Shown one piece after another: positions 1,910 to 62,844 of a DNA stretch of 64,000 nt (positions are counted from its first letter, which is position 1; the number at the start of each line of letters is the position of its first letter). Location: contig CAWJHF010000016.1 of NCBI GenBank assembly GCA_963842445.1, positions 8,067-72,066 of the forward strand. The letters are read 5' to 3'. The notes under the pieces are model-generated. The model did no database searches and was not told where the DNA came from. It was given only the letters and a program-made list of their open reading frames with translations. The position numbers and the translations under genes were made by a program. The stretch comes from an uncultured Verrucomicrobiae bacterium. GTDB taxonomy: Bacteria > Verrucomicrobiota > Verrucomicrobiia > Limisphaerales > UBA11358.

Positions 1910-1926
1910 AAATGCAAAAGCAGAGT

Positions 1927-2235: not shown

Positions 2236-2244
2236 AGTCCAAAA

Positions 2245-4779: not shown

Positions 4780-6153
4780 TCATAAACCGACAACATGAAG
4801 TCCCGTCGGGGGCAATAAAACGACACCAACGTATTGATAAGCTCCTCGATCCCAAATGCCGTTTGCTCCTCTGATGTTGCCCAACATATCAATATTATAA
4901 GGTGCAGATAAACTTAATCCAGAAGCAGTATCGGCAGCCAACTGAAAATTACCTGTAGCATAACTGACAAAGATGGATGAAGGAAGGTTGGCCTGGCTAT
5001 AACTCTCACCAGAAATCGCCGACGATGCACTGGTTGCGTTATAATCGTGGTTGATGCTCTCAAAGGAAGGAGTTGCATTAAACCAAATATTGTTATAAGC
5101 ATAATTGTTAGTAGGCACTTGACCACTAGTGCTTTGTGGCAGATTAATCCCTTGACTATCTGAACCACCAACAATGGTATTGTTATAAAATAAAGTTCCC
5201 GAAGTGAGGTAAGTGTTGTTGACTCCGTTCCAGCCTACAATACCATCAGTACCAGAATTATTCCAGAACACGTTTCCGTAAATGGCACAGTTAGCTGATG
5301 TAACTAATGCTACAACTGCAGTGCCCCCATAGAAACCACTTGGTCCATACCCAGGAGAGAAATTGTTCTGAAAAATATTATAACGAACAACTGCATTGGG
5401 TGTATTGTAATATAGATTGACGCACTCACCATGATTGTTTGAGTCACTCAATGCATTCTCTGAGCCACAATACTCCACTATCGAACCGCTGGAACTTCGT
5501 AGGAAGAAATGATTGTTGCCGTTATTTACTAAACAATGACTAGCAATAAAGCCTGTTGTCACCGTATCGCTTTCCAAGTCAATCTGATAACTACGCACGG
5601 CCGCACCGCTGCTGGGTAACACTTGTGCTATGATGGCGGTATAGTAAATCTGGACGTTATTCGCACCAGCCGCGCCACTGTAATCGTAAGCACCATTAGC
5701 ATCCATGCCGCCAACCTTGATGGCTTGGTTGTAATCTCCCGACGCGTTGACAACAGAAAAGCCATAATTCGTCGCAGAGAACCAGTTATTTTCATTTCTA
5801 ACCTGTCCATTAAATGTGTAGTAACCCGTGCGAAACTTTAGCGGGGCAACAAAAACCGCCTGATTCGCATAAGCAGGAAGCCATCCAGTAGAAGTACCAT
5901 AGTCGGTGGCTGTGGCTCTCTTGATAGTAATGATATTTGTTCCGCTTACTGCATCATTGAAAAAATGGCTGCCATAATTGCCAGCAGCCACATAGTAGAT
6001 TGCGCCCCGTTGCAATGAGGCTGGCAAATCGGTATAGGCATTACTCCAATCTAAGCCGCTGCCGTTTCCACTTGCGGCGGCGTTCACATAATACGTTTGG
6101 CCTTGCGCCGCCAACGTGAATACCAGAAGGGGAGCGATGATTGCTGTTTTCAT
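4780..6153 (-). CDS. secreted right-handed beta-helix repeat protein (possible glycanase/lyase of the EPS locus)
   Basis: The internal start MKTAIIAPLLVFTLAAQGQ (ATG 6153) gives a clean signal peptide. The body is Asn/Gly-rich with periodic NN..Y.N.F/W repeats typical of parallel beta-helices. The segment is visibly more AT-rich than its neighbours. Confidence 0.6.
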   Translation of the reverse strand: MKTAIIAPLLVFTLAAQGQTYYVNAAASGNGSGLDWSNAYTDLPASLQRGAIYYVAAGNYGSHFFNDAVSGTNIITIKRATATDYGTSTGWLPAYANQAVFVAPLKFRTGYYTFNGQVRNENNWFSATNYGFSVVNASGDYNQAIKVGGMDANGAYDYSGAAGANNVQIYYTAIIAQVLPSSGAAVRSYQIDLESDTVTTGFIASHCLVNNGNNHFFLRSSSGSIVEYCGSENALSDSNNHGECVNLYYNTPNAVVRYNIFQNNFSPGYGPSGFYGGTAVVALVTSANCAIYGNVFWNNSGTDGIVGWNGVNNTYLTSGTLFYNNTIVGGSDSQGINLPQSTSGQVPTNNYAYNNIWFNATPSFESINHDYNATSASSAISGESYSQANLPSSIFVSYATGNFQLAADTASGLSLSAPYNIDMLGNIRGANGIWDRGAYQYVGVVLLPPTGLHVVGL

Positions 6154-23127: not shown

Positions 23128-26100
23128 ATGAGTAGTATACATTTTTTTGACCGGGTGGGGTGTGCCGCTCTCAATTCGCTTCTATTAAGTGGGATGGCCC
23201 TTATCATACAGTTGCCGGCCTTTGCCCAAAACGTAACCCTTGCATGGAATCCAAGCACTGATCCAACTGTGGTGGGTTACAATATCTACTATGGTGGAAC
23301 GAGCGGCAATTACACCAACACACTTCCTGCCGGCAATGCAACAAATATCACGGTTTCCGGTTTGGTTGCAGGAGACACCTATTATTTTGCAGCCACAGCG
23401 TATAACAACTCGGGCGAACAAAGTCCGCTTTCAAGCGAGGTTTCCTACTCTGTCCCCACGAATGCCGCAGCCGTCAATCAGCCGCCGACGTTGAACCCCA
23501 TCAACAACCTGACCATCAACGAAAACGCCGGCCTGCAAACGGTGAATCTGTACGGCATCTCTTCCGGTGCCACCAACCAAAATCAATTCCTCACCGTCAC
23601 CGCGACCTCCAGCAACACCAATTTGATTCCCAACCCGACGGTCCATTATACCAGCGCCAACACCAACGGCTCCCTGACCTTCACGCCGGTGACCAATGCC
23701 ATTGGCTCGGCCACCATTACCGTCACCGTCAATAACGGGGGCGCGAGCAACAGCATCGTTACCCAGACTTTCACCGTGACGGTCAACCCGGTGAATCAAC
23801 CGCCGACGTTGAACCCCATCAACAACCTGACCATCAACGAAAACGCCGGCCTGCAAACGGTGAATCTGTACGGCATCTCTTCCGGTGCGGCCAATGAAAA
23901 TCAAAAGCTCACCGTCACCGCGACCTCCAGCAACACCAATTTGATTCCCAATCCGACAGTCAATTATACCAGTGCCAACACCAATGGCTCCCTGGCTTTT
24001 ACGCCGGTTACCAATGTCATTGGCACGGCCATCATCACCGTCACCGTCAATGACGGCGGGGCCAGCAACAACATCATCACCCAATCCTTTACGGTCAACG
24101 TTCAAACCAACAACGATCATACCACGCCCACCGATCAAATCACGGCACCAACCTCCAATCAGCAATGGACCAACGGAACATTTACGGTAACAGGCAAGGC
24201 CAGCGACAACGTGGGGGTGGGGAAGGTGTATTACTCACTGAACGGTTCGGGCTGGACGGCTGCCACGACGACCAACAATTGGACCAATTGGACCGCCAAC
24301 CTGGCGCTGACACCCGGCACCAACACCGTCCAAGCCTATGCCGCCGATACCAGCGGGAACTTCTCACCCACCAACACCGTCAAATTTGAATATGTCGTGC
24401 TCAAGCCCTTGACGGTGCAGATCATGGGACTCGGCACGGTCAATCCCAAGTGTGGCACGCTCAATCCCAACTACACAAACGGCACGCCGCTGGCGATCAA
24501 CGAGAACTACACGTTGACCGCCAATGCGTCGTCGGGGTTTGCCTTCACCAACTGGACGGGGAGTCTGACGACAAACAGCGCGACTCTGCGGTTCATGATG
24601 CAGACCAATTTAACGTTGAAGGCGAATTTTGTGGATGTGATCAAGCCGACAGTGAGCATTGTGACCCCAACCTCCAACCAGCAGTGGACCAATGGAACGT
24701 TCACGGTGACGGGCAAGGCCGGCGACAATGTGGCGGTGAGCACCGTGCATTATTCGTTGAACGGCTCTGGCTGGACGGCGGCCACGACGACCAACAATTG
24801 GACCAATTGGACCGCCAACCTGACGCTGACACCCGGCACCAACACCGTCCAAGCCTATGCCGTGGACACCACCGGGAATATCTCAACTACTAACACCGCC
24901 AAATTTGAATATGTCGTGCGCAAGCCCCTGACGCTGCAGATCTTCGGACTCGGCACGGCCAATCCCAAATGGGGCACACTCAATCCCAATTACACAAACG
25001 GCACGCCGCTGGCCATCAATGAGAACTACAAGTTGACCGCCAATCCGTCGTCAGGATTTGCCTTCACCAACTGGACCGACGGGTCTGGCAACCTGCTGAC
25101 CAATCGGGCCACCCTCCAGTTCACCATGGTGACGAACCTGGCGTTGAGGGCCAATTTCGCGGATGTGACCAGGCCGACATTGAGCATTGTGACCCCAACC
25201 TCCAACCAGCAGTGGACCAATGGAACGTTCACGGTGACGGGCAAGGCCGGCGACAATGTGGCGGTGAGCACCGTGCATTATTCGTTGAACGGCTCTGGCT
25301 GGACGGCGGCCACGACGACCAACAATTGGACCAATTGGACCGCCAACCTGGCGCTGACACCCGGCACCAACACCGTCCAAGCCTATGCCGTGGACACCAC
25401 CGGGAATATCTCAACTACTAACACCGCCAAATTTGAATATGTCGTGCGCAAGCCCCTGACGCTGCAGATCTTCGGACTCGGCACGGCCAATCCCAAATGG
25501 GGCACACTCAATCCCAATTACACAAACGGCACGCCGCTGGCCATCAATGAGAACTACAAGTTGACCGCCAATCCGTCGTCAGGATTTGCCTTCACCAACT
25601 GGACCGACGGGTCTGGCAACCTGCTGACCAATCGGGCCACCCTCCAGTTCACCATGGTGACGAACCTGGCGTTGAGGGCCAATTTCGCGGATGTGACCAG
25701 GCCGACAGTGAGCATTGTGACTCCGACCTCCAACCAGCAGTGGACCAATGGAACGTTCACGGTGACGGGCAAGGCCGGCGACAATGTGGCGGTGAGCACC
25801 GTGCATTATTCGTTGAACGGCTCTGGCTGGACGGCGGCCACGACGACCAACAACTGGACCAATTGGACCGCCAACCTGACGCTGACACCCGGCACCAACA
25901 CCGTCCAAGCCTATGCCGTGGACACCACCGGGAATATCTCAACCACCAACAAGGTAATCTTTGCGTACGCCACGGCACCGAACTCGCTTGCCGGGTTGAT
26001 GGGTGCGGTAAATGAGAATGGTGGCGGCACATTTTATCTTTGCTTTGGCACCAGCACCTTCAGTCAGAACTCGGGCAATACCAACTATGACAACGGCGTT

Positions 26101-38312: not shown

Positions 38313-39896
38313 TCATCCTCCAGCACCAACTGTCCACGTTGACAGTTGATTGCCAACCGTTCCGGGTGGGGATGGCGGCGGATGGGCGACCGGCTTCTCC
38401 ATCTCGGGTATCCGTTCCGTGCGGGACACCAATGAAGCGTAGCGGCCAAGCTTCTCTTCGTAGCAACGGTGGTAAAATTCGGGGAGGGAAACGGAACCCC
38501 CTTCGTGGAACGACCTGAACGCACGATCCGTCTTAAGTTCCTGCTGCAACCGGCGAAAGGTGGCCAGGTCCTGACGCAGGCTGAACGTCCGCAGCGCGTG
38601 CAACAGACTGAATCCGATGGTTGACTTCGTCACCAGCCGCCGCGTCAACATCCGCGTGGACGTCATTGCGGAGTAAATCTCGATGAGCTTGTCGTAATAT
38701 TCGACCGGAGGATAGTTCGGCATCGTCGTTACGAGGTAAGGCGTGTAGTAAAAACTGAAAGGCATCGGCTTCAAAATGCTGCCTTTGGCGAGCGCCCGGT
38801 CGTAGAGCGGAGTGTTGCCAAAGGGAGTCGGAATGTTAACCGTGGGCCAGACGTAAGGGAGCGAACGGATGAATTCCTTGGTCAGCTCAACCGGTTCGTC
38901 GCCGTAATCAACCTCGGAGCCGAACATGAAATTGGCTTGCAACCCCGGGACATATTCCCGCAGCACGCGAAAATGTTCCACGACGTGCTTCAACTTCTCC
39001 TTGGGGGCCATCGCACCAACCCCGGCCTTGTTGGAATAGCTGGTCCATGCCTCGATCCCCGGCGCGATGTAAAGGCAATTTGTCTCCTTCAAACGCTGCA
39101 ACCGGGACCCGCGCAGGATCGAAAGAGAACTCTCCATGATGTAGGGATTACGGGCTTTTTCAGGAACCTTCTCGATGATGCCCAGGACCTGATCAAACTT
39201 CACTCCGAAGTTGGGATCGTGGTAAGTGACCTTGACGCCGGGCAGTTTTTTGGAAATGTAGCGTAAATCGGCTTCGAGCCCTTCCAGCGGGAGCACCGCA
39301 TACGGGCTGTTCCAATCCACGCAGAAGTCGCAACTGTAAGGACAGCCCACACTGCTTAACAAGGGCACCGAACCGACGCCCCGCGCTCGGCCCCGGGTGA
39401 ACACGGCTTTGACAATTTCCGGCATCCGCTCCTCGATGCTGGGGATTTCCTTCAAAGGCCGTCCGCTGCTGATGATGGAGTGGCGGTCGAAGCTGCCGCG
39501 CAGAATGTCGTTTATCAACGTCTTGTCGCAGTCTTTAACGACGAGGTCGAAAAACCGGAGACAATCGGTAGGGAAGGACTTGGCGTGCGGTCCACCGATG
39601 ACCGTCAGGGTTTTTTCGGTGCGATAAAGCTTGGCCAGGGCGTAGGCCAGCGCGCTGGCCTGGGTGTAGGTTGAAATGAAGACCACGTCCAGGTCGTCTG
39701 GCAGCAATCTTTTCGGATCTTGATGTCCGTAAAACGTGGCGTAGAACGTCTGATGACCGAGTTGGCGGCACCAGACGGCCACCACCTGTGGGGTGATGCT
39801 GCAATAATACCTCTTGAAATGGGCGCCATAGGCCGACTCAACCCGGTTCCGGGACTCTGATTCCACGAGCAATTCGAGGATGCCGACTCTCAGCAT
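38313..39896 (-). CDS. B12-binding-domain-like radical SAM protein
   Basis: CX3CX2C cluster motif GCPYSCDFC preceded by a Rossmann-like N-terminal domain (DVVFISTYTQ..TVIGGPHA). Confidence 0.8.
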   Translation of the reverse strand: MLRVGILELLVESESRNRVESAYGAHFKRYYCSITPQVVAVWCRQLGHQTFYATFYGHQDPKRLLPDDLDVVFISTYTQASALAYALAKLYRTEKTLTVIGGPHAKSFPTDCLRFFDLVVKDCDKTLINDILRGSFDRHSIISSGRPLKEIPSIEERMPEIVKAVFTRGRARGVGSVPLLSSVGCPYSCDFCVDWNSPYAVLPLEGLEADLRYISKKLPGVKVTYHDPNFGVKFDQVLGIIEKVPEKARNPYIMESSLSILRGSRLQRLKETNCLYIAPGIEAWTSYSNKAGVGAMAPKEKLKHVVEHFRVLREYVPGLQANFMFGSEVDYGDEPVELTKEFIRSLPYVWPTVNIPTPFGNTPLYDRALAKGSILKPMPFSFYYTPYLVTTMPNYPPVEYYDKLIEIYSAMTSTRMLTRRLVTKSTIGFSLLHALRTFSLRQDLATFRRLQQELKTDRAFRSFHEGGSVSLPEFYHRCYEEKLGRYASLVSRTERIPEMEKPVAHPPPSPPGTVGNQLSTWTVGAGG

Positions 39897-40159
39897 GGTA
39901 GTGGGTTCACGGCGTTGCGGAGTTGGTCTGCGCCGCCGAATTTGCCGATGATTTCCGCCACGTTGCCGTGTTGTGAAATCGGCGGGACTTTCAGTGCGTC
40001 GGGCAGCGTGACTTGGAATTCGCCGTCGAAGGCCGGGGACAGGTGGAATTTCTCGTTGGACCGAAAATCCGTCACAAGCTCTTTAGCCTTTGCAAAGACC
40101 GCATCAAACCCGGCTGGCATGGTGGGAGTGAGTGTGCGCCGAAGATTTATCAGCGTCAA
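39890..40159 (-). pseudogene. hsdR C-terminal (EcoEI_R_C-like) tail remnant 1
   Basis: DGEFQVTLPDALKVPPISQHGNVAEIIGKFGGADQLRNAVN parallels the intact HsdR end DGELQFTLPDVLKVPPISFHGNVNEIVGKFGGTDQLRNAVN. DNA homology spans 39905-40030. Its stop overlaps the radical SAM ATG. Confidence 0.75.
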
Positions 40160-40721: not shown

Positions 40722-40773
40722 GGCACGGTCGCCTGTCGCGGCGAAGCCTGGCGAAAGCCGGAAGGATGGCGGG
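40722..40773. repeat. REP-like element type 2, copy 1
   Basis: ggcacggtcgcctgtcgcggcgaagcctggcgaaagccggaaggatggcgg aligns with 42766-42815. Confidence 0.45.
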
Positions 40774-40842
40774 GAGCAAGGCGTCCAACCCGGCGGCGGT
40801 CTCGGTTTGCAGGCGCTTCAGTCCGTCAACCTCCGCCACCAT
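40766..40842 (-). pseudogene. hsdS 3'-tail remnant (EVDGLKRLQTETAAGLDALLPAIL..), with the distal end replaced by REP type 2
   Basis: The reverse strand reads MVAEVDGLKRLQTETAAGLDALLPAIL. The intact HsdS end is EVDALTRLQAETAAKLDALLPAILDRAFRGEL. Confidence 0.6.
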
Positions 40843-41516: not shown

Positions 41517-41603
41517 TTACAATTCTCCTTTGAAGGCGCGGTCGAGCATGGCGGGGAGCAAGGCGTCCAGTTCGACGGCGGTCTCGGCTTGCAGGTAGTT
41601 CAT
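41517..41603 (-). pseudogene. hsdS 3'-tail remnant preserved as a 28-aa mini-ORF
   Basis: MNYLQAETAVELDALLPAMLDRAFKGEL*. It starts 5 nt after the stop of the upstream lipoprotein gene and ends 4 nt before the tracked TTG start of the redoxin ORF. Confidence 0.65.
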
Positions 41604-42878: not shown

Positions 42879-44075
42879 TCATAATTCACCTCGAAATGCC
42901 CGATCCAAAATCGCTGGCAGCAAGGCGTCCAGTTTGGCGGCGGTTTCGGCTTGCAGGCGCGTCAGCGCGTCCACCTCCGCCTGCAACGCGTCCAGCTCGG
43001 CCACGATCCGGCGCTGCTCGGCGAGCGGAGGCGTTGGAATTTCCAAATCACGAATATCGCCAAGTGAAATGTTTGGGCGTGCCGTTTCAACTTTTCCACC
43101 GTGAATTGTATCTTGCGCAATTGGGCTAAGAAGAAAGTGAACGAGGAAATCTGGCACCAACTTTTCTTTGTCCGGGCTAATCACGCCGACGGCTTGGTTG
43201 ACGTTTGCATCGCCCAAATCTCCGGGCACAGCGCACGCTCGTCCGATAGACGCGCCGACGAGATTTATCAGAACGTCATCTTTACGCAATTGGCAGCGCG
43301 ACAATTTTTCATGGAAGCCTTGCGGGATGTGAATAGCGTTGCGCGGGTCAAGGCTGCCCCACAGGACATTTTCGCTTCGGATGAAAAGCGGACCTGTATC
43401 TTGGTAAGTGAATCCTTGCCATTCTGGTGATTCGCCCTTCGTGACGCGACTCGACAAATCTTCAAGCCGTGAAGCGCCAAAATCCTTCGCAGCAGAAATA
43501 AAGAATGTGTTGCGTCCGGCGCTACGAAGCGCCTCGGCTTCTTCGGCGGCTTGGTGGCGGAGGGTGCGGGCCTCGTGGATTTGGGCGGCCAGGGCCTCAA
43601 TCCGCGCCACCACCCGCCGCTGCTCCGCCAACGGCGGCAACGGAATTTCGCAAGCGAGAAAAATTTTCGGCCTGACAGCGGCATAGCCAGTCGTGCCTTT
43701 CGCCTCCGCGTCCAACTGCTCTTGTAGAAAGTTCGCGTCGAAGATGGCTTTGAGCCAACGCCGATCAAGCTTGTCCTCACGAATATCGAACAGGAAGAAG
43801 TGGTTTGTGCAAAGTGCGCCTTCACCTTCCGGCGGAACGAAACCAATCGCGCCTTTCTTGCCCCAGATTTCGGACAGGATAACTTGCCCGGCTTTTGCAA
43901 GCTGATGGCGTTTCATCTTGAGCATCGCGCCGTCCGTTGGAGCATCAAGCACAACTCCTTTGCCGTAGAGTTTTACCGAGAGCTTCCGGTATTCTCGCGG
44001 TTCAGGTGCTTCGATGTAATCGGTGTAGTGCGTGAGCACTTCGCCCAACTTCACGGTTGGCCATTGCTTGCTCAT
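42879..44075 (-). CDS. hsdS: type I restriction-modification specificity subunit
   Basis: Two target-recognition halves, each followed by a conserved helix (LPPLAEQRRVVARIEAL... and PPLAEQRRIVAELDAL...). The ATG at 44075 overlaps the hsdM stop (ATGA). Confidence 0.9.
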   Translation of the reverse strand: MSKQWPTVKLGEVLTHYTDYIEAPEPREYRKLSVKLYGKGVVLDAPTDGAMLKMKRHQLAKAGQVILSEIWGKKGAIGFVPPEGEGALCTNHFFLFDIREDKLDRRWLKAIFDANFLQEQLDAEAKGTTGYAAVRPKIFLACEIPLPPLAEQRRVVARIEALAAQIHEARTLRHQAAEEAEALRSAGRNTFFISAAKDFGASRLEDLSSRVTKGESPEWQGFTYQDTGPLFIRSENVLWGSLDPRNAIHIPQGFHEKLSRCQLRKDDVLINLVGASIGRACAVPGDLGDANVNQAVGVISPDKEKLVPDFLVHFLLSPIAQDTIHGGKVETARPNISLGDIRDLEIPTPPLAEQRRIVAELDALQAEVDALTRLQAETAAKLDALLPAILDRAFRGEL

Positions 44076-45652
44076 GCCTGCTTTGCCAAAAGTTTCTGGA
44101 TGTTGCCCATGATTTCCGCGATGCGCTGCTCTTTCTTCAGGATTTCGGCGGCGAGTTGCGCGGGCGGCAGGTGCGTGATGTCTTCCTTGGCGCGCGGGTT
44201 CTTGCGGTCGAGATTGCATCCGTTCGCCAGCAACTCGGCGGCGGGCACCACCCAGGCCCGGTCACTTTCCTTTCGGTTATTCCACCATTGGATGCAATCG
44301 GCGAATTCCTCAAACTGGATGGGTGCGGTTTTGGTGTAATTCTTCCGGCCTTCGGGCAGCGGTTGTTCGTAATACCAGACTTCGCGCGTCGGGCCGGAGC
44401 GGTCGAAGAACAGCAGGTTCGTCGGGATGCTGGTGTAGGGCGCAAACACGCCGTTCGGCAGCCGGACGATGGTGTGCAGGTTAAATTCTTTCAGCAATTC
44501 CTCCTTGATGCGGGCGCAAACGCCATCGCCGAACAACGTGCCATTGGGAACGACCACGGCGGCCCTTGCATAGGTAGGGACGCTGCGCTGCGGCGTCCGG
44601 TCATCGCAGCGCGATGACCCTACCTTTTTCAGCTTCCGCATGATTAACTGGAGGAACAGCAGCGCCGTTTCCGCCGTTTGTTTGTCTTCGGGGAAATTGC
44701 CTTGGATGCCTTTCTCCTCCTCGCCGCCGAAAGGCGGGTTGGTGAGGATCACGTCCACGCGGTCGCGCTCGCCGATGTCCGTCAGCTTGAAGCGGAGCGA
44801 ATTGCCGGGATCAATCTGCGGCGCGTCGAGGCCGTGCAACAACAGGTTCATCTGGCAGAGCAGATACGGCAGCGTCTTGGGTTCGCAGCCAAAAAGAGAT
44901 TTTTCCTGCAAGACCTTGCGGTCAGCCACCGTCTTAACTTGTTTTGACAAGTGATTAAACGCTTCAACGAGGAAGCCGCCTGTGCCGCACGCCGGATCGA
45001 GCACGGTCTCGCCTAAGCGCGGGTCGGTGACGGCGACCATGAGGCGCACGACGGCGCGTGGGGTGTAAAACTCGCCGGAATCGCCCGCCGCATCGCGCAT
45101 CTCGCGGAGCATGGATTCGTAGAGCGCACCCAGCGTCTGCAGCTCGCTGCTGGAGGTGAAATGAATGCCGGCAAGCTTATTGATGACATCGCGCAACAGG
45201 TAGCCGCTGACCATGCGGTTCTGCACTCCCTTGAACACGGTGGCAATCACGTCCCGCCGATCGTCGCCATTGGAACTGGTGAGCGTGCGCAGGTAACGGA
45301 ACAGGCCTGCGCCACGCTTGCCGTCCGGGCGCGTGGTCTCCTCGTTGTTGATGAAGGCGAGCAATTCGTCGCCGGTGATGCCGTCGGACTTGGCGGCCCA
45401 ATCGCGCCAGCGATAGGGCGGTTCGATGGCCGGCTTGAACTTTTTGGCGGCGAGCTTGGCCTCGCCCTCGCGCTGAATTTCCAGGTCGTCCAGAAATTTC
45501 AGGAACATGATCCATGTGAGCATCGGCAACCGGTCAAGGTCGCCATTCAGCCCCTTGTCCTTTCTCATGATGTCGCGCGCAGATTTCAGGAGCGCCCCGA
45601 GTGATTGGGCGGTGGTAGGAGAAGCCGGAACGAGCTTAGGATTCGGCGCCAT
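44072..45652 (-). CDS. hsdM: type I restriction-modification N6-adenine DNA methyltransferase subunit, with an 18-aa in-frame palindromic-element insertion
   Basis: HsdM N-domain (LDRLPMLTWIMFLKFLDD), motif I DPACGTGGF and motif IV NPPFGG. The start is set at MAPNPK (ATG 45652). Confidence 0.9.
   Translation of the reverse strand: MAPNPKLVPASPTTAQSLGALLKSARDIMRKDKGLNGDLDRLPMLTWIMFLKFLDDLEIQREGEAKLAAKKFKPAIEPPYRWRDWAAKSDGITGDELLAFINNEETTRPDGKRGAGLFRYLRTLTSSNGDDRRDVIATVFKGVQNRMVSGYLLRDVINKLAGIHFTSSSELQTLGALYESMLREMRDAAGDSGEFYTPRAVVRLMVAVTDPRLGETVLDPACGTGGFLVEAFNHLSKQVKTVADRKVLQEKSLFGCEPKTLPYLLCQMNLLLHGLDAPQIDPGNSLRFKLTDIGERDRVDVILTNPPFGGEEEKGIQGNFPEDKQTAETALLFLQLIMRKLKKVGSSRCDDRTPQRSVPTYARAAVVVPNGTLFGDGVCARIKEELLKEFNLHTIVRLPNGVFAPYTSIPTNLLFFDRSGPTREVWYYEQPLPEGRKNYTKTAPIQFEEFADCIQWWNNRKESDRAWVVPAAELLANGCNLDRKNPRAKEDITHLPPAQLAAEILKKEQRIAEIMGNIQKLLAKQA
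44573..44624. repeat. REP-like structured palindromic element type 1, copy C (inside the hsdM coding sequence)
   Basis: ggtagggacgctgcgctgcggcgtccggtcatcgcagcgcgatgaccctacc belongs to the same family as 61174-61225 and 62499-62549. In hsdM it is translated as VGSSRCDDRTPQRSVPT. Confidence 0.8.
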
Positions 45653-45848
45653 GAGATTTGGTACGGTATGGAACCGGTGTTTCGCGCAACGCAGCGGCCT
45701 CCGTGACGGAAATCCACACGGCTTTGCCATCCCGCCAGACGGCCAGCGGACGGCCGCGCCGCTGATGGTCGGCAACGACTTTGGCCACGGCATCCGCCAG
45801 TGCCTGTATCGCCTTTTGTGTCAGAGAGGATTCGGTTCGTTTTTTCAT
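45636..45848 (-). CDS. small hypothetical protein (70 aa), possible partner of the zeta-like ATPase
   Basis: MKKRTESSLTQKAIQALADAVAKVVADHQRRGRPLAVWRDGKAVWI... Its ATG overlaps the ATPase stop (ATGA), and its 3' end overlaps the hsdM start by 17 nt. Confidence 0.45.
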   Translation of the reverse strand: MKKRTESSLTQKAIQALADAVAKVVADHQRRGRPLAVWRDGKAVWISVTEAAALRETPVPYRTKSHGAES

Positions 45849-46430
45849 GGTGCAAACCGCCGTCGCAATTGTTCGTAAAGCGCGGCATCGCCAATCGTAG
45901 TGTGGCCCGCTTCGTCTTTGAAGATTAAACGCGGCGTGTCGGACGAGTTGTCGAAGAAATGCAATGTGTCGAGCCACGGGCGGTAAAGCGTGAAAAGATT
46001 GCCCACCGTGCGGCCAAATCGCCGCCGGACATCGCGCTCCGGGACGTTGTGTCCGCCGCTCTCGACGCGATCGCGAATGCGCAGCAAGGCCAGGTCGGGA
46101 CTGGGAATCCACAGATAGAACATGTGCAGCCGGAAGCCGGCCTTTTTCGCGCCGCGCAGCAACGGCACATAGGAGCGACCCGACAAAAATGGTTTCAAAG
46201 GCGAAATCGGTTCGCGCTGCCGTGAATTCCGCGATGCGCTCCAGAACGGCGCGCCCGACGCGCAACATGCCCGCGTCTGGATCGAAGGGCGAATAGGCGC
46301 GGGCCAGCAAATCTGGATTGATGAAATTGCGGCAGTTGGCGTAGAGCGGCAGGAACTCCGTGGCAAACGTGGTTTTGCCTGCGCCGTTCGGGCCGGCGAT
46401 GACATAGCAGTTGGCAAACTTACGCGGCAT
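45845..46430 (-). pseudogene. zeta-toxin-like / COG4185-type P-loop ATPase, split by a +1 frameshift in a homopolymer
   Basis: Frame A carries MPRKFANCYVIAGPNGAGKTTF...TDFAFET. Frame B carries LSGRSYVPLL...GGHNVPERDVRRRF...FFDNS. The frames join if one base is removed from the A5 run at 46185-46189. Confidence 0.7.
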
Positions 46431-46506
46431 ACAGCAGCGTTTGCAGTTGGTTCACGGCGTTGCGGAGCTGGTCTGCGCCGCCGAATTTGCCGATGATTTC
46501 ATTCAC
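46420..46506 (-). pseudogene. hsdR 3'-tail remnant 2 (..VNEIIGKFGGADQLRNAVNQLQTLLYAA*)
   Basis: It begins directly after the Fic stop. Its terminal codons overlap the ATPase ATG. It contains the 50-nt conserved core. Confidence 0.7.
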
Positions 46507-46513
46507 GATTTGC

Positions 46514-47632
46514 TCATTTGATTTTAGCCTTTGGCTTTCGACCTTTGGCGGTTCCGTTATTACCCTCTTTATTACCCTCTTTCAAGGGTAATACCCTCTT
46601 TTGCCATTTCGCACCCGGGCCGCGGCCGAGACATTCGACGTGGCCGGCAGCCTTCAGGTCGCGCAACAAAAGACGAATCATGTCGCGGCTGACGCCGGGG
46701 CAGAGCCGCTCAAGGTCGGTGATGCCGAATTCGCCGGCAAGGTTTTCAATGGCGTGCTCGACCAGTTCGGTTTTCGCGCCGCGCGGCGATTTGAGCTGGC
46801 CGACGCGCTGCTCAAATTCCTTACAGGCTTGCGTGAGGATGAAGAGCAGGAAATTCATCGCCGGCCAAGGATCATGTTTGCTTTCGTGCCAGCGCTGGGA
46901 ACTCTGTTCCAGGACTTCGTAATACCGTTCCTTGTTTTCCTCGATGAGGCGTTCCAGGCTGATGTAGCGTCCGGCTTCAATGCCGCAGTGATAGCACGCC
47001 AGCAGAAAGAGCAGACGCGAGACGCGGCCATTACCATCGCGAAAGGGGTGGATGCAGAGAAAATCCAGATTCAACGCCGCCGTCAGGACGAGTGGATGAA
47101 CCCATCTTTCGCGCCAGCCACGCTCCCACAGTTCAACCATTTCCGCCATCGCCCGGGGTGTTTGTTTTGCCGGAACGGATTTGAAACGGACGCGGCTGCG
47201 GCCATCGGCATAGGTCTGGATAATGTCCACATCTTTTTCTTTGTAACGACCGGCGTCCCAGACCTGGCCTTGGCAGAGTTTGTGGAGCCGCTTGATGGTG
47301 GTTTCAGCGATTGGCAGTTTTGCGCCGGATTCGTGGATGAGTTTCAATGCGTCCCGATAACCGCGCACTTCCTCCTCGTCGCGGTCGCGCAAAGCGGGTT
47401 TACCGAAAATGAGCGTAGCGACGCGGGATTTGTCCACTTCCACGCCTTCGATGCGGTTTGATGAAATAGCGCTTTCAATCAAGGCGTGCTCGCGCAGCAC
47501 CTTGAGCTTTTGCGGTGACTGGCGGGTGAACAACTCTTGTTTTCCGCGCGCCTCGGCCAGGTCGGTCAAATACCACGTCGTCCGCGTCGGCAACGCGGCT
47601 GGTTCGGCGGCGAGTTGGCGGAGGGTCATCAT
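46514..47632 (-). CDS. Fic-family protein (AMPylase-type) with a C-terminal winged-helix-like domain
   Basis: Canonical Fic motif HPFRDGNGRVSR. N-terminal Fic-N-like helices. Confidence 0.9.
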   Translation of the reverse strand: MMTLRQLAAEPAALPTRTTWYLTDLAEARGKQELFTRQSPQKLKVLREHALIESAISSNRIEGVEVDKSRVATLIFGKPALRDRDEEEVRGYRDALKLIHESGAKLPIAETTIKRLHKLCQGQVWDAGRYKEKDVDIIQTYADGRSRVRFKSVPAKQTPRAMAEMVELWERGWRERWVHPLVLTAALNLDFLCIHPFRDGNGRVSRLLFLLACYHCGIEAGRYISLERLIEENKERYYEVLEQSSQRWHESKHDPWPAMNFLLFILTQACKEFEQRVGQLKSPRGAKTELVEHAIENLAGEFGITDLERLCPGVSRDMIRLLLRDLKAAGHVECLGRGPGAKWQKRVLPLKEGNKEGNNGTAKGRKPKAKIK

Positions 47633-47635
47633 GGG

Positions 47636-47743
47636 TCAAGCGGAATAGAGCAGCGATTGGAGTTGGTTGACGGCGTTGCGGAGCTGGTCCGTGCCGCCGA
47701 ATTTACCGATGATTTCGTTTACGTTACTGAGAGATCGCGTCAT
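47636..47743 (-). pseudogene. hsdR 3'-tail remnant 3, preserved as a 35-aa mini-ORF
   Basis: MTRSLSNVNEIIGKFGGTDQLRNAVNQLQSLLYSA*. Its ATG overlaps the cupin gene stop (ATGA), and its stop lies 3 nt before the Fic ATG. Confidence 0.7.
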
Positions 47744-48114
47744 TTGACAGGACTCCTGCTTTCTTCAACCGATGACGGCCACCGGACGGTGATGACAACC
47801 GCTTTGGTGAGAGCTTCCCACCTGTGTTCTCGTTTGTCCTCCCAGACGACGAAGTTTCCGGGAGACCGCAAAACAAAAGTATCGGTTTTCCTACTGGAAC
47901 GGATTTGCACGAGAAACTCTCCGGACAAAAGTAACGTAATGGTTTTCTTTCCAGGCTGCGATTTCCAATCGCCGGATTCACCAGTTTCATGCACACCCCA
48001 TTTGATTTCGATATCGTCAGTCGCTCTCAATGAACGTTTCTTCACAAAGTGGCCGACAATCCAACCACGTGTGGGCTGACCACAGACTACTGCGTTTCCA
48101 AACTCTGGGCGCAT
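47740..48114 (-). CDS. cupin-like small protein
   Basis: PTRGWIVGHFV...DIEIKWGVH..G......TLLLSGEF....VVWEDKREHRWEALTKAVVITVRWPS resembles small single-domain cupins I have seen. Weak. Confidence 0.4.
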   Translation of the reverse strand: MRPEFGNAVVCGQPTRGWIVGHFVKKRSLRATDDIEIKWGVHETGESGDWKSQPGKKTITLLLSGEFLVQIRSSRKTDTFVLRSPGNFVVWEDKREHRWEALTKAVVITVRWPSSVEESRSPVK

Positions 48115-48346: not shown

Positions 48347-50725
48347 TCAGGTTGCATACAGCAGCATTTGAAGTTTGTTCACGGCGTTGCGGAGCTGGTC
48401 CGTGCCGCCGAATTTGCCGACGATTTCGTTGACGTTGCCGTGGAATGAAATCGGCGGGACTTTCAGCACATCGGGCAGGGTGAATTGGAGTTCGCCGTCG
48501 GTGGCGTATTTCTCCAGCAGGTCTTTCAGGATTTCCTGGGCTTCCAAGCTGAAGTAGCCGAAGAAAGCCGATTGCTGTCTCTTAAAGCGGTCGGCGCGCT
48601 GGCGGCGGGTGACCACGGGCGCGTTGAAGGCGAGGTGGCACAGCAGGTCGAATGGGTCGGCGTCCGGTTTGCCCACCTGCGCGGCGACTTGCTGGAAATC
48701 AATCCCGCGCTCGGCAAGCTGCTGGATGATGTCGGCGCGCTGGCCGGCGTCGGCCCAGCGGGCGCGCAAATCCTCCGGGCTGGCGCAGAGCGTCCGCACC
48801 TTCTCGGCGGTGTAGTCGGTGAGCTTGACGACGCGGAGTTGTTTGCCGTCGGAATCAAGCTCGTGGACCAGTTCGGCGGCAATTTCGACCTGTCCGCCGT
48901 CGAAGTAGTACTTTCGGCGTTCGGACGGTGGACCGTCCACGATGACGGGCGGTTGGACTTCTTCCTGAAGCTTGCCGTCGTCATCCTCGGTTTCCTCCGG
49001 CGTGATGACTTCGGTTTCTTTCACCTTGCCGTATTCGTCAATTTCCTCCTGCGTGGCGAACGCCGGATCACCGTCGAAGGTTGGGTCGGCGAAGTTGCGC
49101 GTGGCCGTGCCGGTGTAGTCGAGGATGTTGAACCAGAGCTTGCCGTAGTCGTCGCGCACGCGCGTGCCGCGCCCGATGATTTGCTTGAACTCGACCATCG
49201 AGTTGACAAGGCGCACGAGCACGACGTTGCGGCAGGTGGGCGCGTCGAGGCCGGTGGTGAGCAGTTGCGAGGTGGTCAGGATGACGGGCGTGCGCGTCTC
49301 CACGTCCTGAAACCGCTGCATGTGGCCGCGCCCGATGTCGCCTTCGTCGGCGGTGACGCGGCAGACGTAATCGGGGAATTGCTGGACGAGGTCGGTGTTC
49401 AGATTGTTGAGCGCGGTGCGCATCTCGGATGCGTGTTCCTGGTCCACGCAAAAGACGATGGTCTTGGCGAAGCGGTCGTTTTTTTTGAGGAAGTCGGTCA
49501 AGTGTTTCGCGATGATCTCCGTGCGCTTCAGTAACGCCACTTTTCGCTCGAAATCTGCCGTGGTGTATTCCCCGTCAGGGATGCGGCGACCGTAACGGTC
49601 GAGGTCGTCTTTGCTCGGGCGCCAGCCGGCAGCATCCCATTGTGTGATGATGCGGTGGACGCGATATGGCGCGAGGAAACCGTCGTCAATGCCCTGTTTG
49701 AGGCTGTAGGTGTAAATCGGGTTGCCGAAGTAGAGATAGGTGTCCTTGTTGTCCTGGCGCAACGGCGTGGCGGTCATGCCGAGTTGATAGGCGGGCTCAA
49801 AGTATTCGAGGATTTCGCGCCAGTTGGAATCTTCCTTGGCGCTACCGCGGTGGCACTCGTCCACGATGATGAGGTCGAAGAAGTCAGGCGCGAATTCTTT
49901 GTAAAGACCGGGACGACGTTCGTCCTTGGCGATGGATTGATAGGTGGCGAAATACATCTCACGGCTGAACACGGCGTTACCGCCCTCAATCTTGTGCCGG
50001 GCGTCCCCGAATGGTGCGAAGATTTTGTCCTTGGGGTCGTCCACGAGAAAGTTGCGGTCGGCGAGATACAGAATGCGTGGTTTTCTTTGGGGCTCGTTCT
50101 TCCGATTCCATTTCGAGGACCAAAGTTTCCAGCAAATTTGAAAGGCGACATCCGTCTTGCCCGTGCCGGTAGCCATCGTCAGCAACACCCGCTTCCTGCC
50201 TTGCAGAATGGCTTGCACGGCGCGGTCAATCGCGATGCACTGATAATAACGCGGTTCCCTCCCGGTAGTCAGATTGGCCGAAGTCAGCAGGCGTTGTGCG
50301 GCGGTGTCGTCCGTAAGTTTTTCCCCTGCACGAAGCCGTGACCAGAGTTCGGCCGGCGCCGGAAAGCTTCCAATCACCCGTTCTTTGCCGGTGAGGAAAT
50401 CAAACTCGACGATACCCTGGCCGTTGGTGGCATAGGCGAATTTCAGGCCGAGGATTTGGGCGTATTCCTTGGCCTGTTGCAAGCCATCCGCTGCTTTCTT
50501 GTATTGCGCCTTGGCTTCGACTACTGCCAAGGTGAAGTCGCGCGTATAGCGCAACAGGAAATCGGCGCGTTTGCCTTTGCGGCGTTCGGCCCGACTGCCA
50601 CGAACCACGATGCGTCCGGCGGTGAAATAGCGTTGCTCGGCGATGGAATGCGGGTCGTTGTCCCACCCGGCAGCTTGAAGCTTCGGCACAACGAATTTGC
50701 GGCATGTATCGGCTTCGGTTGACAT
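48347..50725 (-). CDS. hsdR: type I restriction enzyme R subunit (EcoAI/EcoEI-like, with an EcoEI_R_C-type tail)
   Basis: N-terminal nuclease region (ADFLL...VVEAK), helicase motifs MATGTGKT and DECHR, and the C-terminal tail LKVPPISFHGNVNEIVGKFGGTDQLRNAVNKLQMLLY. Confidence 0.92.
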   Translation of the reverse strand: MSTEADTCRKFVVPKLQAAGWDNDPHSIAEQRYFTAGRIVVRGSRAERRKGKRADFLLRYTRDFTLAVVEAKAQYKKAADGLQQAKEYAQILGLKFAYATNGQGIVEFDFLTGKERVIGSFPAPAELWSRLRAGEKLTDDTAAQRLLTSANLTTGREPRYYQCIAIDRAVQAILQGRKRVLLTMATGTGKTDVAFQICWKLWSSKWNRKNEPQRKPRILYLADRNFLVDDPKDKIFAPFGDARHKIEGGNAVFSREMYFATYQSIAKDERRPGLYKEFAPDFFDLIIVDECHRGSAKEDSNWREILEYFEPAYQLGMTATPLRQDNKDTYLYFGNPIYTYSLKQGIDDGFLAPYRVHRIITQWDAAGWRPSKDDLDRYGRRIPDGEYTTADFERKVALLKRTEIIAKHLTDFLKKNDRFAKTIVFCVDQEHASEMRTALNNLNTDLVQQFPDYVCRVTADEGDIGRGHMQRFQDVETRTPVILTTSQLLTTGLDAPTCRNVVLVRLVNSMVEFKQIIGRGTRVRDDYGKLWFNILDYTGTATRNFADPTFDGDPAFATQEEIDEYGKVKETEVITPEETEDDDGKLQEEVQPPVIVDGPPSERRKYYFDGGQVEIAAELVHELDSDGKQLRVVKLTDYTAEKVRTLCASPEDLRARWADAGQRADIIQQLAERGIDFQQVAAQVGKPDADPFDLLCHLAFNAPVVTRRQRADRFKRQQSAFFGYFSLEAQEILKDLLEKYATDGELQFTLPDVLKVPPISFHGNVNEIVGKFGGTDQLRNAVNKLQMLLYAT

Positions 50726-51091: not shown

Positions 51092-51179
51092 GCCGGTGTG
51101 GCGAAATGGCAGACGCACAGGACTTAAAATCCTGGGACCATAAAAAGTCGTGTGAGTTCGAGTCTCACCACCGGCACCA
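51092..51179 (+). tRNA. tRNA-Leu (anticodon UAA), class II with long variable arm, CCA encoded
   Basis: Hand fold: acceptor GCCGGTG/CACCGGC, D arm GCG/CGC, anticodon stem CAGGA/TCCTG with loop CTTAAAA, 17-nt variable arm, T arm GTGAG-TTCGAGT-CTCAC, discriminator A, then CCA. Confidence 0.9.
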
Positions 51180-60575: not shown

Positions 60576-60986
60576 GCTCTTGAACGCGCCTAGGCAACCA
60601 AAGTTGCCGGATTAAGTAAAGCAAAAACCACAATATACAGCGTAGCCTTGCTGTTGCAGGCACAACTAATTGGTGAGGAACCATGATTTGCTTTGTGCCG
60701 ACAACTGCTTACTCTAATCTCTCAAACCGTTGGCATTTATACGCCTGCCGGAAGAATCCGTCAACTGGTATTTTTAGCGGTAGAATTTAACCAGCAGCAG
60801 CGGACGCAAATCGGCCACAATTCCGCGAAGGATGAACTGACTCATGTTGGCCGGTACGATAATTGGGTCGCGAAGGGGGTGGAATAATCATTGCAGCTTG
60901 CCTTTTTAATACGACATCAGATCAAAAAACCAATTGACACTTTTACAATCTTGCATCAGTTTATCCGCATCCGTTGATTTGACGGT

Positions 60987-61100
60987 CTCATGCAGAGTGG
61001 CTGAGGGACTGGCCCGATGACGCCACGGCAACCGGCCCCGAATGCGTTCGGGGCGACCAGGTGCCAATTCCAGCCCTGACAGGTGTCGGGGAAAAATGAG
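60987..61100 (+). promoter_or_regulatory. SAM-I (S-box) riboswitch aptamer
   Basis: P1 CTCAT...ATGAG. Conserved cores GAGGGACTGGCCCGATGACGCCACGGCAACC and AGGTGCCAATTCCAGC, then GAAAAATGAG. Confidence 0.9.
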
Positions 61101-61120
61101 AAGCGTGCGCAAATTTTATC

Positions 61121-61173: not shown

Positions 61174-61225
61174 GGTAGGGACGCCGCGCTGCAGCGTCCG
61201 GTCGGCGCAGCGCGCCGACCCTACC
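61174..61225. repeat. REP-like structured palindromic element type 1, copy A
   Basis: ggtagggacgccgcgctgcagcgtccggtcggcgcagcgcgccgaccctacc. Outer stem GGTAGGG/CCCTACC and two internal hairpins. Confidence 0.8.
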
Positions 61226-61238
61226 AAACGAAAAATTT

Positions 61239-62495
61239 ATGGAAAAGCACAGTGGTTACATGAAGGCGCTGAAATGCCGGGAATGCGGACGCGAATATCC
61301 GCTCACGGCCAATCACGTCTGCGAGTTCGACTTCGGCCCGCTCGAAGTCGCCTATGACTACGACCGCATCAAAACGTCTTTGACGCGGGCGGCCATCCAA
61401 TCGCGCCCGCAGACGATGTGGCGTTACCGCGAATTGCTGCCGGTGGCGAACGACCCGACCGTCGGGCTGCAAGTCGGTTTCACGCCGCTCGTTAAAGCCG
61501 ACCGCTTGGCGAAAAAACTCGGCATCCGCGAATTGTGGATCAAGAACGACTCGGTGAATTACCCCACGCTGTCATTTAAAGACCGCGTCGTGAGTGTCGC
61601 GTTGAGCCGTTCGCGCGAACTCGGTTTTGAAACCGTCGCTTGCGCCTCGACCGGCAACCTGGCCAATTCCGTCGCCGCCCAGGCCGCGAGCGCCGGATTG
61701 AAAGCTTATGTGTTCATTCCGTCGGATTTGGAGCAGGGCAAAATCGTCAACTCGTTGATTTACGGCGCGCACGTCATCGGCATCAAAGGCCATTACGACG
61801 AGGTGAACCGGCTTTGCGCCGAGATTGCGGGCAAGTTCGGCTGGGCGTTTGTGAACGTGAACATGAGGCCATATTACGCCGAAGGCTCGAAGAGCATGGC
61901 GTATGAAATCGCCGAGCAACACGGCTGGCGCGTGCCGCGGCACACCGTCGTGCCGGTGGCGTCCGGTTCGTTACTGACAAAAATCCAGAAAGGCTATCAG
62001 GAGTTCATCAAGCTGGGCCTCGTGCCGGAGACGGAACATGCCGTGCACGGCGCGCAGGCGACGGGTTGTTCGCCGATTTCCGTAGCGCAAAAAGCGGGCC
62101 TGGATTTCTTCAAACCGGTGAAGCCGGATACGATTGCGAAATCGCTGGCCATCGGCACGCCAGCAGACGGCTTTTATGCGCTCAAGGTAATGCGGGACAC
62201 GAACGGCGCAGCGGAGGACGTGACCGATGATGAGATTCGCGACGCCATGAAACTGCTCGCCGAGACGGAAGGTATTTTTGCCGAAACCGCCGGCGGCGTG
62301 ACCGTGGGCGTGGCCAAGAAACTGATTGATTCAGGCAAAATTCCGCATGATGATTCGGCGGTGCTTTGTGTAACGGGCAACGGACTGAAGACGCTCGACG
62401 CCGTCATCGGCCACGTCGGCAAGCCGCGTGAAATCAAGCCGAGCCTGCGTGAGTTTGAAGCGCTGATCACAAATGAAGAGAAAGTGAATGCGTAA
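61239..62495 (+). CDS. threonine-synthase-like fold-type II PLP enzyme with N-terminal zinc ribbon (under SAM riboswitch control)
   Basis: CRECG...HVCE zinc-ribbon, PLP-lysine motif TLSFKDR, and ASTGNLANSVAA. The start could be 61239 or 61260. Confidence 0.85.
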   Translation: MEKHSGYMKALKCRECGREYPLTANHVCEFDFGPLEVAYDYDRIKTSLTRAAIQSRPQTMWRYRELLPVANDPTVGLQVGFTPLVKADRLAKKLGIRELWIKNDSVNYPTLSFKDRVVSVALSRSRELGFETVACASTGNLANSVAAQAASAGLKAYVFIPSDLEQGKIVNSLIYGAHVIGIKGHYDEVNRLCAEIAGKFGWAFVNVNMRPYYAEGSKSMAYEIAEQHGWRVPRHTVVPVASGSLLTKIQKGYQEFIKLGLVPETEHAVHGAQATGCSPISVAQKAGLDFFKPVKPDTIAKSLAIGTPADGFYALKVMRDTNGAAEDVTDDEIRDAMKLLAETEGIFAETAGGVTVGVAKKLIDSGKIPHDDSAVLCVTGNGLKTLDAVIGHVGKPREIKPSLREFEALITNEEKVNA

Positions 62496-62498
62496 TAT

Positions 62499-62549
62499 GG
62501 TAGGGACGCCGCACCGCGGGTCCGGTCGGCGCAGCGCGCCGACCCTACC
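62499..62549. repeat. REP-like structured palindromic element type 1, copy B
   Basis: ggtagggacgccgcaccgcgggtccggtcggcgcagcgcgccgaccctacc, between the thrC-like and ThiS-like genes. Confidence 0.8.
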
Positions 62550-62568: not shown

Positions 62569-62844
62569 ATGCCAAAGAAAGTCCGAATCCCAACGCCGCT
62601 CCGCAAGTTGACCAACAACAAGGAACTGGTCGAAGTCAACGCCGCCACCATCGGCGAGGCGATTGTCGAATTGCAGGCGCGCTTCCCCGGCATCCAGGAA
62701 CGCCTCGTGGATGAAAAAGGCGAGGTGCGCCGCTTCGTGAACGTCTATGTGAACGAGGAGGACATCCGCTTCCTCAAGAACAAACAGACGCCTCTCAAAG
62801 ACGGCGACGAAATCAGCATCATCCCCGCTATCGCGGGTGGTTGA
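62569..62844 (+). CDS. ThiS/MoaD-family ubiquitin-like sulfur-carrier protein
   Basis: 91 aa ending ...DGDEISIIPAIAGG*, the beta-grasp family C-terminal GG. Confidence 0.8.
   Translation: MPKKVRIPTPLRKLTNNKELVEVNAATIGEAIVELQARFPGIQERLVDEKGEVRRFVNVYVNEEDIRFLKNKQTPLKDGDEISIIPAIAGG

Follow-up and report, generated by a model that had tools for sequence, protein, structure and literature searches.

A 52-nucleotide (nt) palindromic element lies in frame inside hsdM, the methylase gene of a Type I restriction-modification (R-M) operon, in a 64,000-nt stretch of contig CAWJHF010000016.1 (positions 8,067 to 72,066; referred to here as the window) from an uncultured Verrucomicrobiae bacterium (GenBank assembly GCA_963842445.1). 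We consider it quite probable that the element is a selfish, nonautonomous doublet of GTAG-tagged repetitive extragenic palindromes (REPs) that is translated within a permissive loop of HsdM, and that the methylase stays functional. In-frame GTAG REP dimers have been catalogued in the verrucomicrobium Opitutus terrae, one of them in the N-6 DNA methylase Oter_3011 (Di Nocera et al. 2013, Additional file 3, PMC3733652), and the hsdM case adds to this known phenomenon a family and a host gene that are both new. An earlier note on this DNA had supposed that such an insertion was undescribed for this lineage or for an R-M methylase, a claim that the O. terrae catalog, with its methylase entry, overturns.

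The sequence at positions 44,573 to 44,624 is exactly the 52-nt GGTAGGGACGCTGCGCTGCGGCGTCCGGTCATCGCAGCGCGATGACCCTACC. It has the family consensus orientation on the plus strand, antisense to hsdM, with its GTAG tags facing outward. A search for the pattern GGTAGGG-N25-50-CCCTACC found three sites in the window, at 44,573, 61,174, and 62,499 (0 expected in 100 shuffles), all in one common orientation, and the GTAG-tagged doublet signature occurs in the window only at these places. The exact match and the pattern search bear out the earlier note, which had grouped the three copies in one family. Each copy can fold into a Y in which an outer stem of 5 to 6 bp (GGTAGG/CCTACC) encloses two hairpins with 9-bp stems and 3-nt loops, and these folds are more stable than those of shuffled sequences (z = -3.5 to -6.4, with -6.4 for the hsdM copy). 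In the hsdM copy, the 5' arm of the outer stem (GGTAG, 44,573 to 44,577), which holds the tag of the first half-element, pairs with the 3' arm (CTACC, 44,620 to 44,624), which holds the tag of the second half-element on the minus strand. Hairpin 1 (GGACGCTGC-GCT-GCGGCGTCC, 44,578 to 44,598) has a 9-bp stem with one G.T pair, and hairpin 2 (GGTCATCGC-AGC-GCGATGACC, 44,599 to 44,619) is a minor CATC/GATG subfamily variant common to all hsdM copies. Between window copies, hairpin 2 differs in a compensatory manner (GGTCATC/GATGACC versus GGTCGGC/GCCGACC).

An exact-pattern scan placed the family at at least 120 loci in soil and peat metagenome contigs, with the consensus GGTAGGGACGCCGCGCTGCGGCGTCCGGTCGGCGCAGCGCGCCGACCCTACC, sharp ends, and unrelated, A/T-rich flanks; about 80% of the copies lie outside long open reading frames (ORFs). 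Over 58 distinct copies, 97.4% of cells in the Y structure are paired, with compensatory pairs in hairpin 2 at positions 31-43 and 32-42 (G-C/A-U and G-C/U-A, two stacked pairs), while much of the remaining structure had been fixed by the search pattern itself. Each half consists of G-GTAG-G followed by a 9-bp stem and a 3-nt loop in all 58 copies, one of which reads GTGG. Each half-element thus has the GTAG tag and short imperfect palindrome of a REP, and the two halves abut with tags outward and can fold together, as in a REPIN (REP doublet forming hairpins) or the head-to-head dimer class (definitions of Di Nocera et al. 2013, PMC3733652). An Rfam scan of the window found no family at the element; its only matches were an S-adenosylmethionine (SAM) riboswitch and a tRNA. 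The reading of the element as a dispersed palindromic repeat of REP-like type, lying in frame in a loop of HsdM, is supported.

The hsdM gene occupies 44,072 to 45,652 on the minus strand and encodes 526 amino acids (aa) from an ATG at 45,652, in an ORF that is open up to 45,793, with N6_Mtase and HsdM_N domains. The element is translated on the minus strand as KVGSSRCDDRTPQRSVPTY, and the protein reads KLKK-VGSSRCDDRTPQRSVPTY-ARAAVVVPNG, the extra residues standing between NPPFGG and the RAAVVVPNG strand; the minus-strand ORF agrees in this with the read-through first proposed. Among 120 HsdM orthologs that are 85-93% identical to the window HsdM, 44 have a 7-aa loop at this place (RQGGKSR or RQTGKAR), while 5 have the window peptide or a truncated form of it. 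The enlarged loop of the window, K-VGSSRCDDRTPQRSVPTY-AR (44,564 to 44,626, minus strand), has 21 aa versus the 7 aa of the empty orthologs. At the DNA level, the filled junction is AAG(GTAGGG...CCTACCTAT)GCA versus CGG(CAGGGCGGCAAG)TCT in empty alleles, or, in codons, AAG(GTA GGG ... CCT ACC TAT)GCA AGG versus CGG(CAG GGC GGC AAG)TCT CGC. Relative to empty orthologs with RQGGKSR, the net gain is 42 nt (14 aa), with the 12 nt of the loop core QGGK replaced; the clean insertion of 18 aa (54 nt) that had been proposed is not what the ortholog alignment gives. Positions 44,625 to 44,632 (plus strand) adjoin the element: alleles with GTAGGG-type inserts all have AAAAAG (Lys-Lys) upstream of it, where empty alleles have CGNCGG (Arg-Arg).

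Orthologs that lack the palindrome also lack the peptide, and every peptide-bearing ortholog for which DNA was fetched has the palindrome, so the reading as an insertion survives this comparison. The same element occurs at the same hsdM position in three independent metagenome assemblies (L081, L082, and L083), which rules out an assembly artefact. An intein or intron is likewise ruled out, as the element is 52 nt long, is read straight through in translation, and lacks splicing features, and a diversity-generating retroelement is a poor fit because the loop varies in length and its inserts are repeat families. That the segment is no insertion at all, being either a native hypervariable loop with a coincidental palindrome or a product of misassembly, retains next to no probability. 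Loop length does vary in the family, even among solved structures (PDB 3ufb, 5ybb, and 2okc, all with short loops at the insert position), as a native loop would allow. However, the loop DNA is 85-89% identical to both intergenic window copies, the family numbers at least 120, orthologs at 5-6% protein divergence have the 7-aa loop, and three assemblies agree. The native-loop and artefact reading is refuted.

The window HsdM aligns over 513 residues with the Vibrio vulnificus HsdM (PDB 3ufb; E value of 3e-232) and has the same domain order and motifs; unlike the window protein, the V. vulnificus enzyme has a loop (RPGHGSDNGG) that is 10 aa shorter and without a repeat element. The window protein preserves motifs I (DPACGTGG) and IV (NPPFGG), and Pfam recognizes PF02384 (2.8e-60) and PF12161. 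Together with Methylase_S and ResIII/EcoEI_R_C neighbors, these domains and motifs identify a Type I HsdM. Outside the element, four element-bearing hsdM alleles differ at dS (synonymous divergence) values of 0.59 to 0.94 with ratios of nonsynonymous to synonymous divergence (dN/dS) of 0.08 to 0.12, and in all four, diverged as they are, the reading frame continues across the element. The element-bearing alleles share rare variants (the CATC/GATG hairpin 2 and a T at position 12), which suggests that they inherited one insertion; if so, HsdM has been under strong purifying selection ever since the insertion. The earlier note had raised the possibility that the element inactivates modification. 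With intact motifs, a frame kept in four alleles, and low dN/dS, inactivation appears unlikely from these sequences, and a modulatory effect of the insert may exist.

An AlphaFold2 model built on a 55-sequence alignment (mean pLDDT [predicted local distance difference test] 52, only the secondary structure being used) has a helix at residues 325 to 341, a loop at 342 to 363 (pLDDT below 50), and a strand at 364 to 370; the pLDDT is low because the homologs in the alignment are all 85-93% identical. In Rossmann folds, helix-to-strand connections lie on the face opposite the cofactor and substrate. By this analogy, the insert would face away from both, and it is an extra hydrophilic bulge of 14 aa that is probably disordered.

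Out of 109 copies of the 52-nt family in metagenome contigs, about 18 fall within long ORFs. A Pfam check of ten such in-ORF copies gave domain matches on each side of the insert, or across it, in nine. The nine hosts are DnaE-like, FadB-like, GHMP kinase, cysteinyl-tRNA synthetase (CysRS), LplA-like, PMT_2 glycosyltransferase, and Methyltransf_33 proteins and two FAD-oxidase/Fe-S fusions; in the tenth, MGMT, the Pfam match lies only downstream of the insert. The inserts are mostly in a linker or loop. In cysS, the element fills an identical 52-nt slot in both orientations, plus relative to coding in L210 (gene at 1,652 to 3,073) and minus in L162, L164, and L117, and further orthologs have other repeats there (of the NVQRPTSNAQRPT type) or an unrelated 17-aa linker. 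Such occupancy of one slot in both orientations goes beyond the observations of Di Nocera et al. (2013). A separate ORF, the FAD-oxidase/Fe-S fusion of L178, contains three different repeat-encoded inserts (EVGSARCADRTPQSGVPT, HCKGAVAGVADPGTAVSNRGYKK, and LNSLSSQLSTINSQLSTTP).

The HsdM loop is a hotspot for insertions of many kinds. It is the only site of long indels in a 121-sequence HsdM alignment, in which other indels span at most 6 residues. Long loops occur in 79 of 183 HsdM orthologs and fall into about 28 unrelated insert classes (for example, KVGRGVPSAPPAR, RVRSSGFSRSGSDADRLKAELQTAR, and KHSLSAMGRGTKGEVLPAR), with orthologs from Nitrospira (RPGAHSEMRDLKSQISRGGR) and Binatia among the carriers; this recurrent use of one loop also goes beyond Di Nocera et al. 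(2013). At the DNA level, most of the fetched inserts are strong hairpins, some loop repeats (NRTDRTD and NSQPSTLNS) are nonpalindromic, and some loops combine two families, as does that of P0114 with a KVPLS...HP insert and TLNPQPSTLNS. The nearest relatives of the window HsdM, at 5-6% protein divergence, have empty, short, or quite different inserts, while the alleles that share its element are less closely related to it. The RR...RAA codons of the empty site give CGGCGG...GCCGCC, a G+C-rich stem-loop. This loop block is among the 5% most stable gene windows in 18 of 54 loci and the best in 7, which, the 54 loci being related to one another, is suggestive of a hairpin-prone empty site.

At least one insert class can be tied to a transposase. 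The 42- to 47-aa inserts of L086, P0004, P0042, and P0107 belong to a REPIN family that flanks a Y1_Tnp REP-associated tyrosine transposase (RAYT) in contig L007, and part of the traffic through the loop therefore consists, at least, of RAYT-associated REPINs. Read-through peptides of this family flank most of 120 RAYT homologs found with the L007 protein as seed, several of which are labelled Verrucomicrobia and many of which are annotated RayT. Within the short flanks of about 20 kb around their own loci, the other insert classes mostly have no extra copies; the Nitrospira inserts are the sole class with any, in the form of partial copies. A second, minor indel site lies at about residues 457 to 461 of the query HsdM (WWN-NRKE), where about 10% of orthologs have a 6-aa insert, QPGPGTK. 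The REP of Oter_3011, numbered 444 to 496 by Di Nocera et al., may match this site rather than the loop.

The proposed course of events is as follows. The element would have been mobilized by a tyrosine transposase of the RAYT (TnpA-REP) type that works on single-stranded hairpins, as the architecture of the element and the neighboring insert class suggest, and one REP doublet would have landed in the DNA for the helix-to-strand loop between motif IV and the RAAVVVPNG strand. There it would simply be translated, since four of the six reading frames of the element are open and the loop stands at the N-terminal end of a Rossmann strand. The loop may have been hit repeatedly for three reasons: it could be the one place in a compact enzyme that tolerates extra residues, its DNA was presumably already a G+C-rich stem-loop, and the R-M operon would move horizontally among repeat-rich soil bacteria.

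Several observations weigh against this account of a selfish, passively translated REP doublet. The surface location of the loop is predicted from homology and fold logic, the model being poor. A phmmer search of all ORFs in 2.2 Mb, with an Escherichia coli RayT as query, found no RAYT beside the 52-nt family, and therefore the transposase step is drawn by analogy only. The 120 RAYT homologs, which come from related bacteria, likewise include none with peptides of the 52-nt family beside it. Insert boundaries in the HsdM loop shift by a codon or two between families, which does not suit a single sequence-specific target. A target duplication of 1 to 2 nt, for which the flanks give a hint described below, would not fit RAYT/IS200-type enzymes, which make none. 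Finally, the embedded copy is far more conserved than neutral junk (0 to 2 synonymous differences at about 15 sites versus a dS of 0.6 to 0.9 for the gene), for which a purely passive passenger model does not account.

The conservation is seen most clearly between the window and L081, whose elements are identical at 57 of 57 nt while the genes are 86.6% identical. Across six pairs of hsdM alleles, the synonymous differences in the element number 0, 1, 1, 1, 1, and 2 at about 15 sites, where 6 to 8 would be expected, and in the CysRS element 0 of 16 synonymous sites have changed, versus a flank pS (proportion of synonymous differences) of 0.44 to 0.55. Immediately beside the hsdM element, the DNA has diverged to the same extent as elsewhere in the gene, and local gene conversion from other hsdM alleles is rejected as the cause. 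This synonymous freezing of embedded copies is a further point beyond Di Nocera et al. (2013).

Frozen synonymous sites in both the hsdM and CysRS copies, with no extra likeness in the DNA beside them, would be expected if the hairpin were kept for a role at the DNA or RNA level and the protein loop were a tolerated by-product. The hairpin could be a live REP bound by a transposase or host factor, could stabilize hsdM mRNA or cause pausing, or could act as an antisense terminator; on the plus strand, TTTTT follows directly after the element, and the combination scores as terminator-like, antisense to hsdM. The stems keep pairing through compensatory changes, and the replacement of CGNCGG by AAAAAG in all element-bearing alleles points the same way. 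However, the inserts of other hsdM alleles are quite different or absent, so the operon does not need any one structure, pairs of the outer stem are broken in some in-gene copies (G to A in L082 and T to C in L083), and low divergence could equally reflect recent spread or renewal of the element in place. Such a role agrees with the REP-insertion reading on the origin of the element and differs on why it persists; we hold it as a tentative addition, with the balance leaning against it.

The other addition that we entertain, at the same low level of confidence and without conflict with the first, is site-directed renewal, in which REPs home to existing REPs or REP-like hairpins, and the family active in a given host repeatedly overwrites, inverts, or replaces what a colonized slot contains. 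On this view, the hsdM loop would serve as a landing pad instead of just permitting insertions. This would account for about 28 insert classes in one loop and none elsewhere in the protein, for compound loops such as that of P0114, for nearest relatives in other states while alleles with the same element are more distant, for a CysRS slot with both orientations and other repeats, and for element identity that exceeds host identity; the empty site, moreover, is a stem-loop (GGCAGGGCGGC...GCCGCC) resembling GGTAGGG plus a hairpin. Set against these points, insert boundaries lie a few nucleotides apart from one family to the next, and nonpalindromic repeats occur as well. The rare variants common to the hsdM copies, unlike the other two window copies, fit inheritance with the gene better than overwriting from a master copy of the host, selection for the only tolerant loop could look alike, and the CysRS list (the top 120 matches) is biased toward insert-bearing proteins. 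In its general form, the proposal is that intragenic REP doublets are more than single neutral passengers and that hairpin-prone helix-to-strand or linker codons, such as those of the HsdM RR...RAA loop and the CysRS linker, are long-lived landing pads on which REPs are renewed, flipped, and swapped. An embedded repeat would thereby stay nearly identical while its host gene diverges to a dS of 0.6 to 0.9. We regard this general form as possible and, on present evidence, rather doubtful.

The flanks of the 52-nt copies bear on how the element moves. Identical bases stand on both flanks in 54 of 107 copies (33.6 expected), including TT|TT in 11 and AA|AA in 7, and a 2-nt direct repeat flanks 20 of 107 copies (10.6 expected). 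The excess could represent a 1- to 2-nt target duplication or insertion into A/T runs. A target duplication would suit a miniature transposable element with inverted repeats (MITE), that is, a deletion derivative of an insertion sequence (IS) with 7-nt terminal inverted repeats (GGTAGGG/CCCTACC) moved by a DDE transposase. With a 2-nt duplication, each insertion would add 54 nt and keep the frame, which would explain easy in-frame insertion, and a related 56-nt element in L088 has AA on both sides. Yet the 2-nt repeat is found in only about one-fifth of the copies, the flanks are A/T-rich so that insertion into runs of A or T gives the same signal, and the bases that border the hsdM copy differ, being AA and TA. 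Furthermore, a GTAG tag with a hairpin on each strand is the signature of a REP and not a typical IS end, and no IS with GGTAGGG ends was seen in the fetched sequence, in a search for a parent IS that was not exhaustive. We therefore consider a MITE origin improbable beside that of a REP doublet.

As a REP doublet, the element most resembles the GTAG-17, GTAG-18, and GTAG-19 dimers of O. terrae. In both, each half has a GTAG tag and a G+C-rich 9-bp hairpin, and the halves are inverted, 0 to 1 nt apart, with tags outward. Both occur in many scattered copies, counted across metagenome contigs for the 52-nt family, mainly in the gaps between genes that run in the same direction or converge, with a sizeable minority in frame that adds about 17 to 24 aa to known proteins, including DnaE2-type polymerase, tRNA synthetase, and N-6 DNA methylase hosts, and both belong to the phylum Verrucomicrobia. 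The O. terrae GTAG-18 dimers are translated as VGPALAAG...PPY, corresponding to GTAGGG...CCCTAC (Additional file 3, PMC3733652), and the window element has the same VG...PPY ends. In contrast, the stem sequences differ from those of GTAG-17/18/19, and the 52-nt element is a separate family. In the wider survey, more than half of intragenic REP inserts are dimers or groups encoding 20 to 30 aa, some dimer partners are 1 to 2 bp apart, DnaE2, UvrA, DNA ligase, helicases, and tRNA synthetases are among the proteins with inserts, and the recB REPs of two Xanthomonas species lie at about the same site (PMC3733652). Further REP and REPIN literature includes Nunvar 2010 (PMC2817692) and Bertels & Rainey 2011 (PMC3116915).

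Rickettsia palindromic elements (RPEs) are an analogue in behavior, being palindromic repeats in frame in the loops or linkers of unrelated, still functional genes. They were described from Rickettsia, an alphaproteobacterial genus, whereas the 52-nt element comes from Verrucomicrobia-type contigs, and RPE-1 is longer than the 52-nt element, at roughly 100 to 150 bp. The short intragenic RPE-4 and RPE-6 of Rickettsia conorii have been equated with CGTC-tagged, not GTAG-tagged, REPs (PMC3733652). The 52-nt element is thus set apart from RPEs by length, tag, and the literature rather than by sequence comparison. On contig L007, the RayT-type Y1 transposase gene (3,707 to 4,780) has a GTAG REPIN of about 143 nt on each side, an arrangement known as a REPtron, about 5 kb upstream of the hsdM of that contig, which is labelled Candidatus Acidoferrum while the closest homologs of its RAYT are labelled Verrucomicrobia. 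The L007 REPINs share the GTAG tag and nested hairpins with the window element, and their family occurs in the same hsdM loop of other orthologs; unlike them, the window element represents a different REP family.

For the restriction system, the insert most likely has no drastic effect. A loop with dozens of independent inserts in a very conserved, horizontally mobile enzyme maps a fully permissive site, which is useful for tagging Type I methylases, and the hsdM data set addresses target choice by REPs and the reason that embedded copies change so much less than synonymous sites of the host. The mechanism of REP and REPIN dissemination is a question not yet settled (PMC8266576), for which orthologous coding sites that are filled, empty, inverted, or replaced are unusually clean material, because the reading frame fixes the alignment. 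If landing pads of the kind proposed above do exist, they would mean site-directed REP turnover or selection on a repeat inside essential coding DNA.

The hsd operon around the insertion is a variable defense islet. The earlier note had described the restriction subunit as intact in appearance, and this agrees with hsdR (48,347 to 50,725, minus strand), which encodes 792 aa with HSDR_N, ResIII, Helicase_C, and EcoEI_R_C domains and is apparently intact. The specificity gene hsdS (42,879 to 44,075, minus strand) encodes Methylase_S with two target-recognition stretches and also looks intact; its likely start ATG overlaps the hsdM stop (ATGA). The cargo between hsdR and hsdM/hsdS (45,636 to 48,114, minus strand) differs among the orthologous operons of loci L081 to L089, with Fic/DOC and an AAA-like ORF in the window and 23S_rRNA_IVP, PIN_3, DUF3800, SLFN_AlbA_2, or TIR_2 plus RES elsewhere. 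The last 80 to 130 nt of hsdR (...NEIIGKFGGTDQLRNAVNQLQTLLYAA*; 48,347 to 48,430, minus strand) recur at about 47,595 to 47,725, 46,420 to 46,507, and 39,891 to 40,028, adjoining cargo genes inside and downstream of the operon, as in the positions directly upstream of Fic and the AAA-like ORF. The 3' end of hsdS (42,879 to 43,031) likewise recurs twice, at about 41,519 to 41,595 and 40,763 to 40,837. These recurring gene 3' ends look like the result of cassette insertion or recombination. A tRNA-Leu(taa) gene (51,092 to 51,179, plus strand), about 370 nt away from the start of hsdR, may mark the boundary of an island.

The two other copies of the element in the window are intergenic, as had been noted, and both adjoin a gene for a PALP enzyme. 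The second copy (61,174 to 61,225, plus strand) lies between a SAM riboswitch (RF00162, 82.6 bits; 60,985 to 61,102, plus strand) and the PALP-family gene (61,239 to 62,495), and the third, of 51 nt (62,499 to 62,549, plus strand), lies between this gene and a ThiS-family gene (62,569 to 62,844). REP doublets thus stand inside a riboswitch-controlled leader and inside the operon that follows it. Elsewhere in the window, at about 24,281 to 25,928, a 21-nt motif and short palindromes come back every 528 nt, which indicates a tandem array of units of about 176 aa in a large gene.

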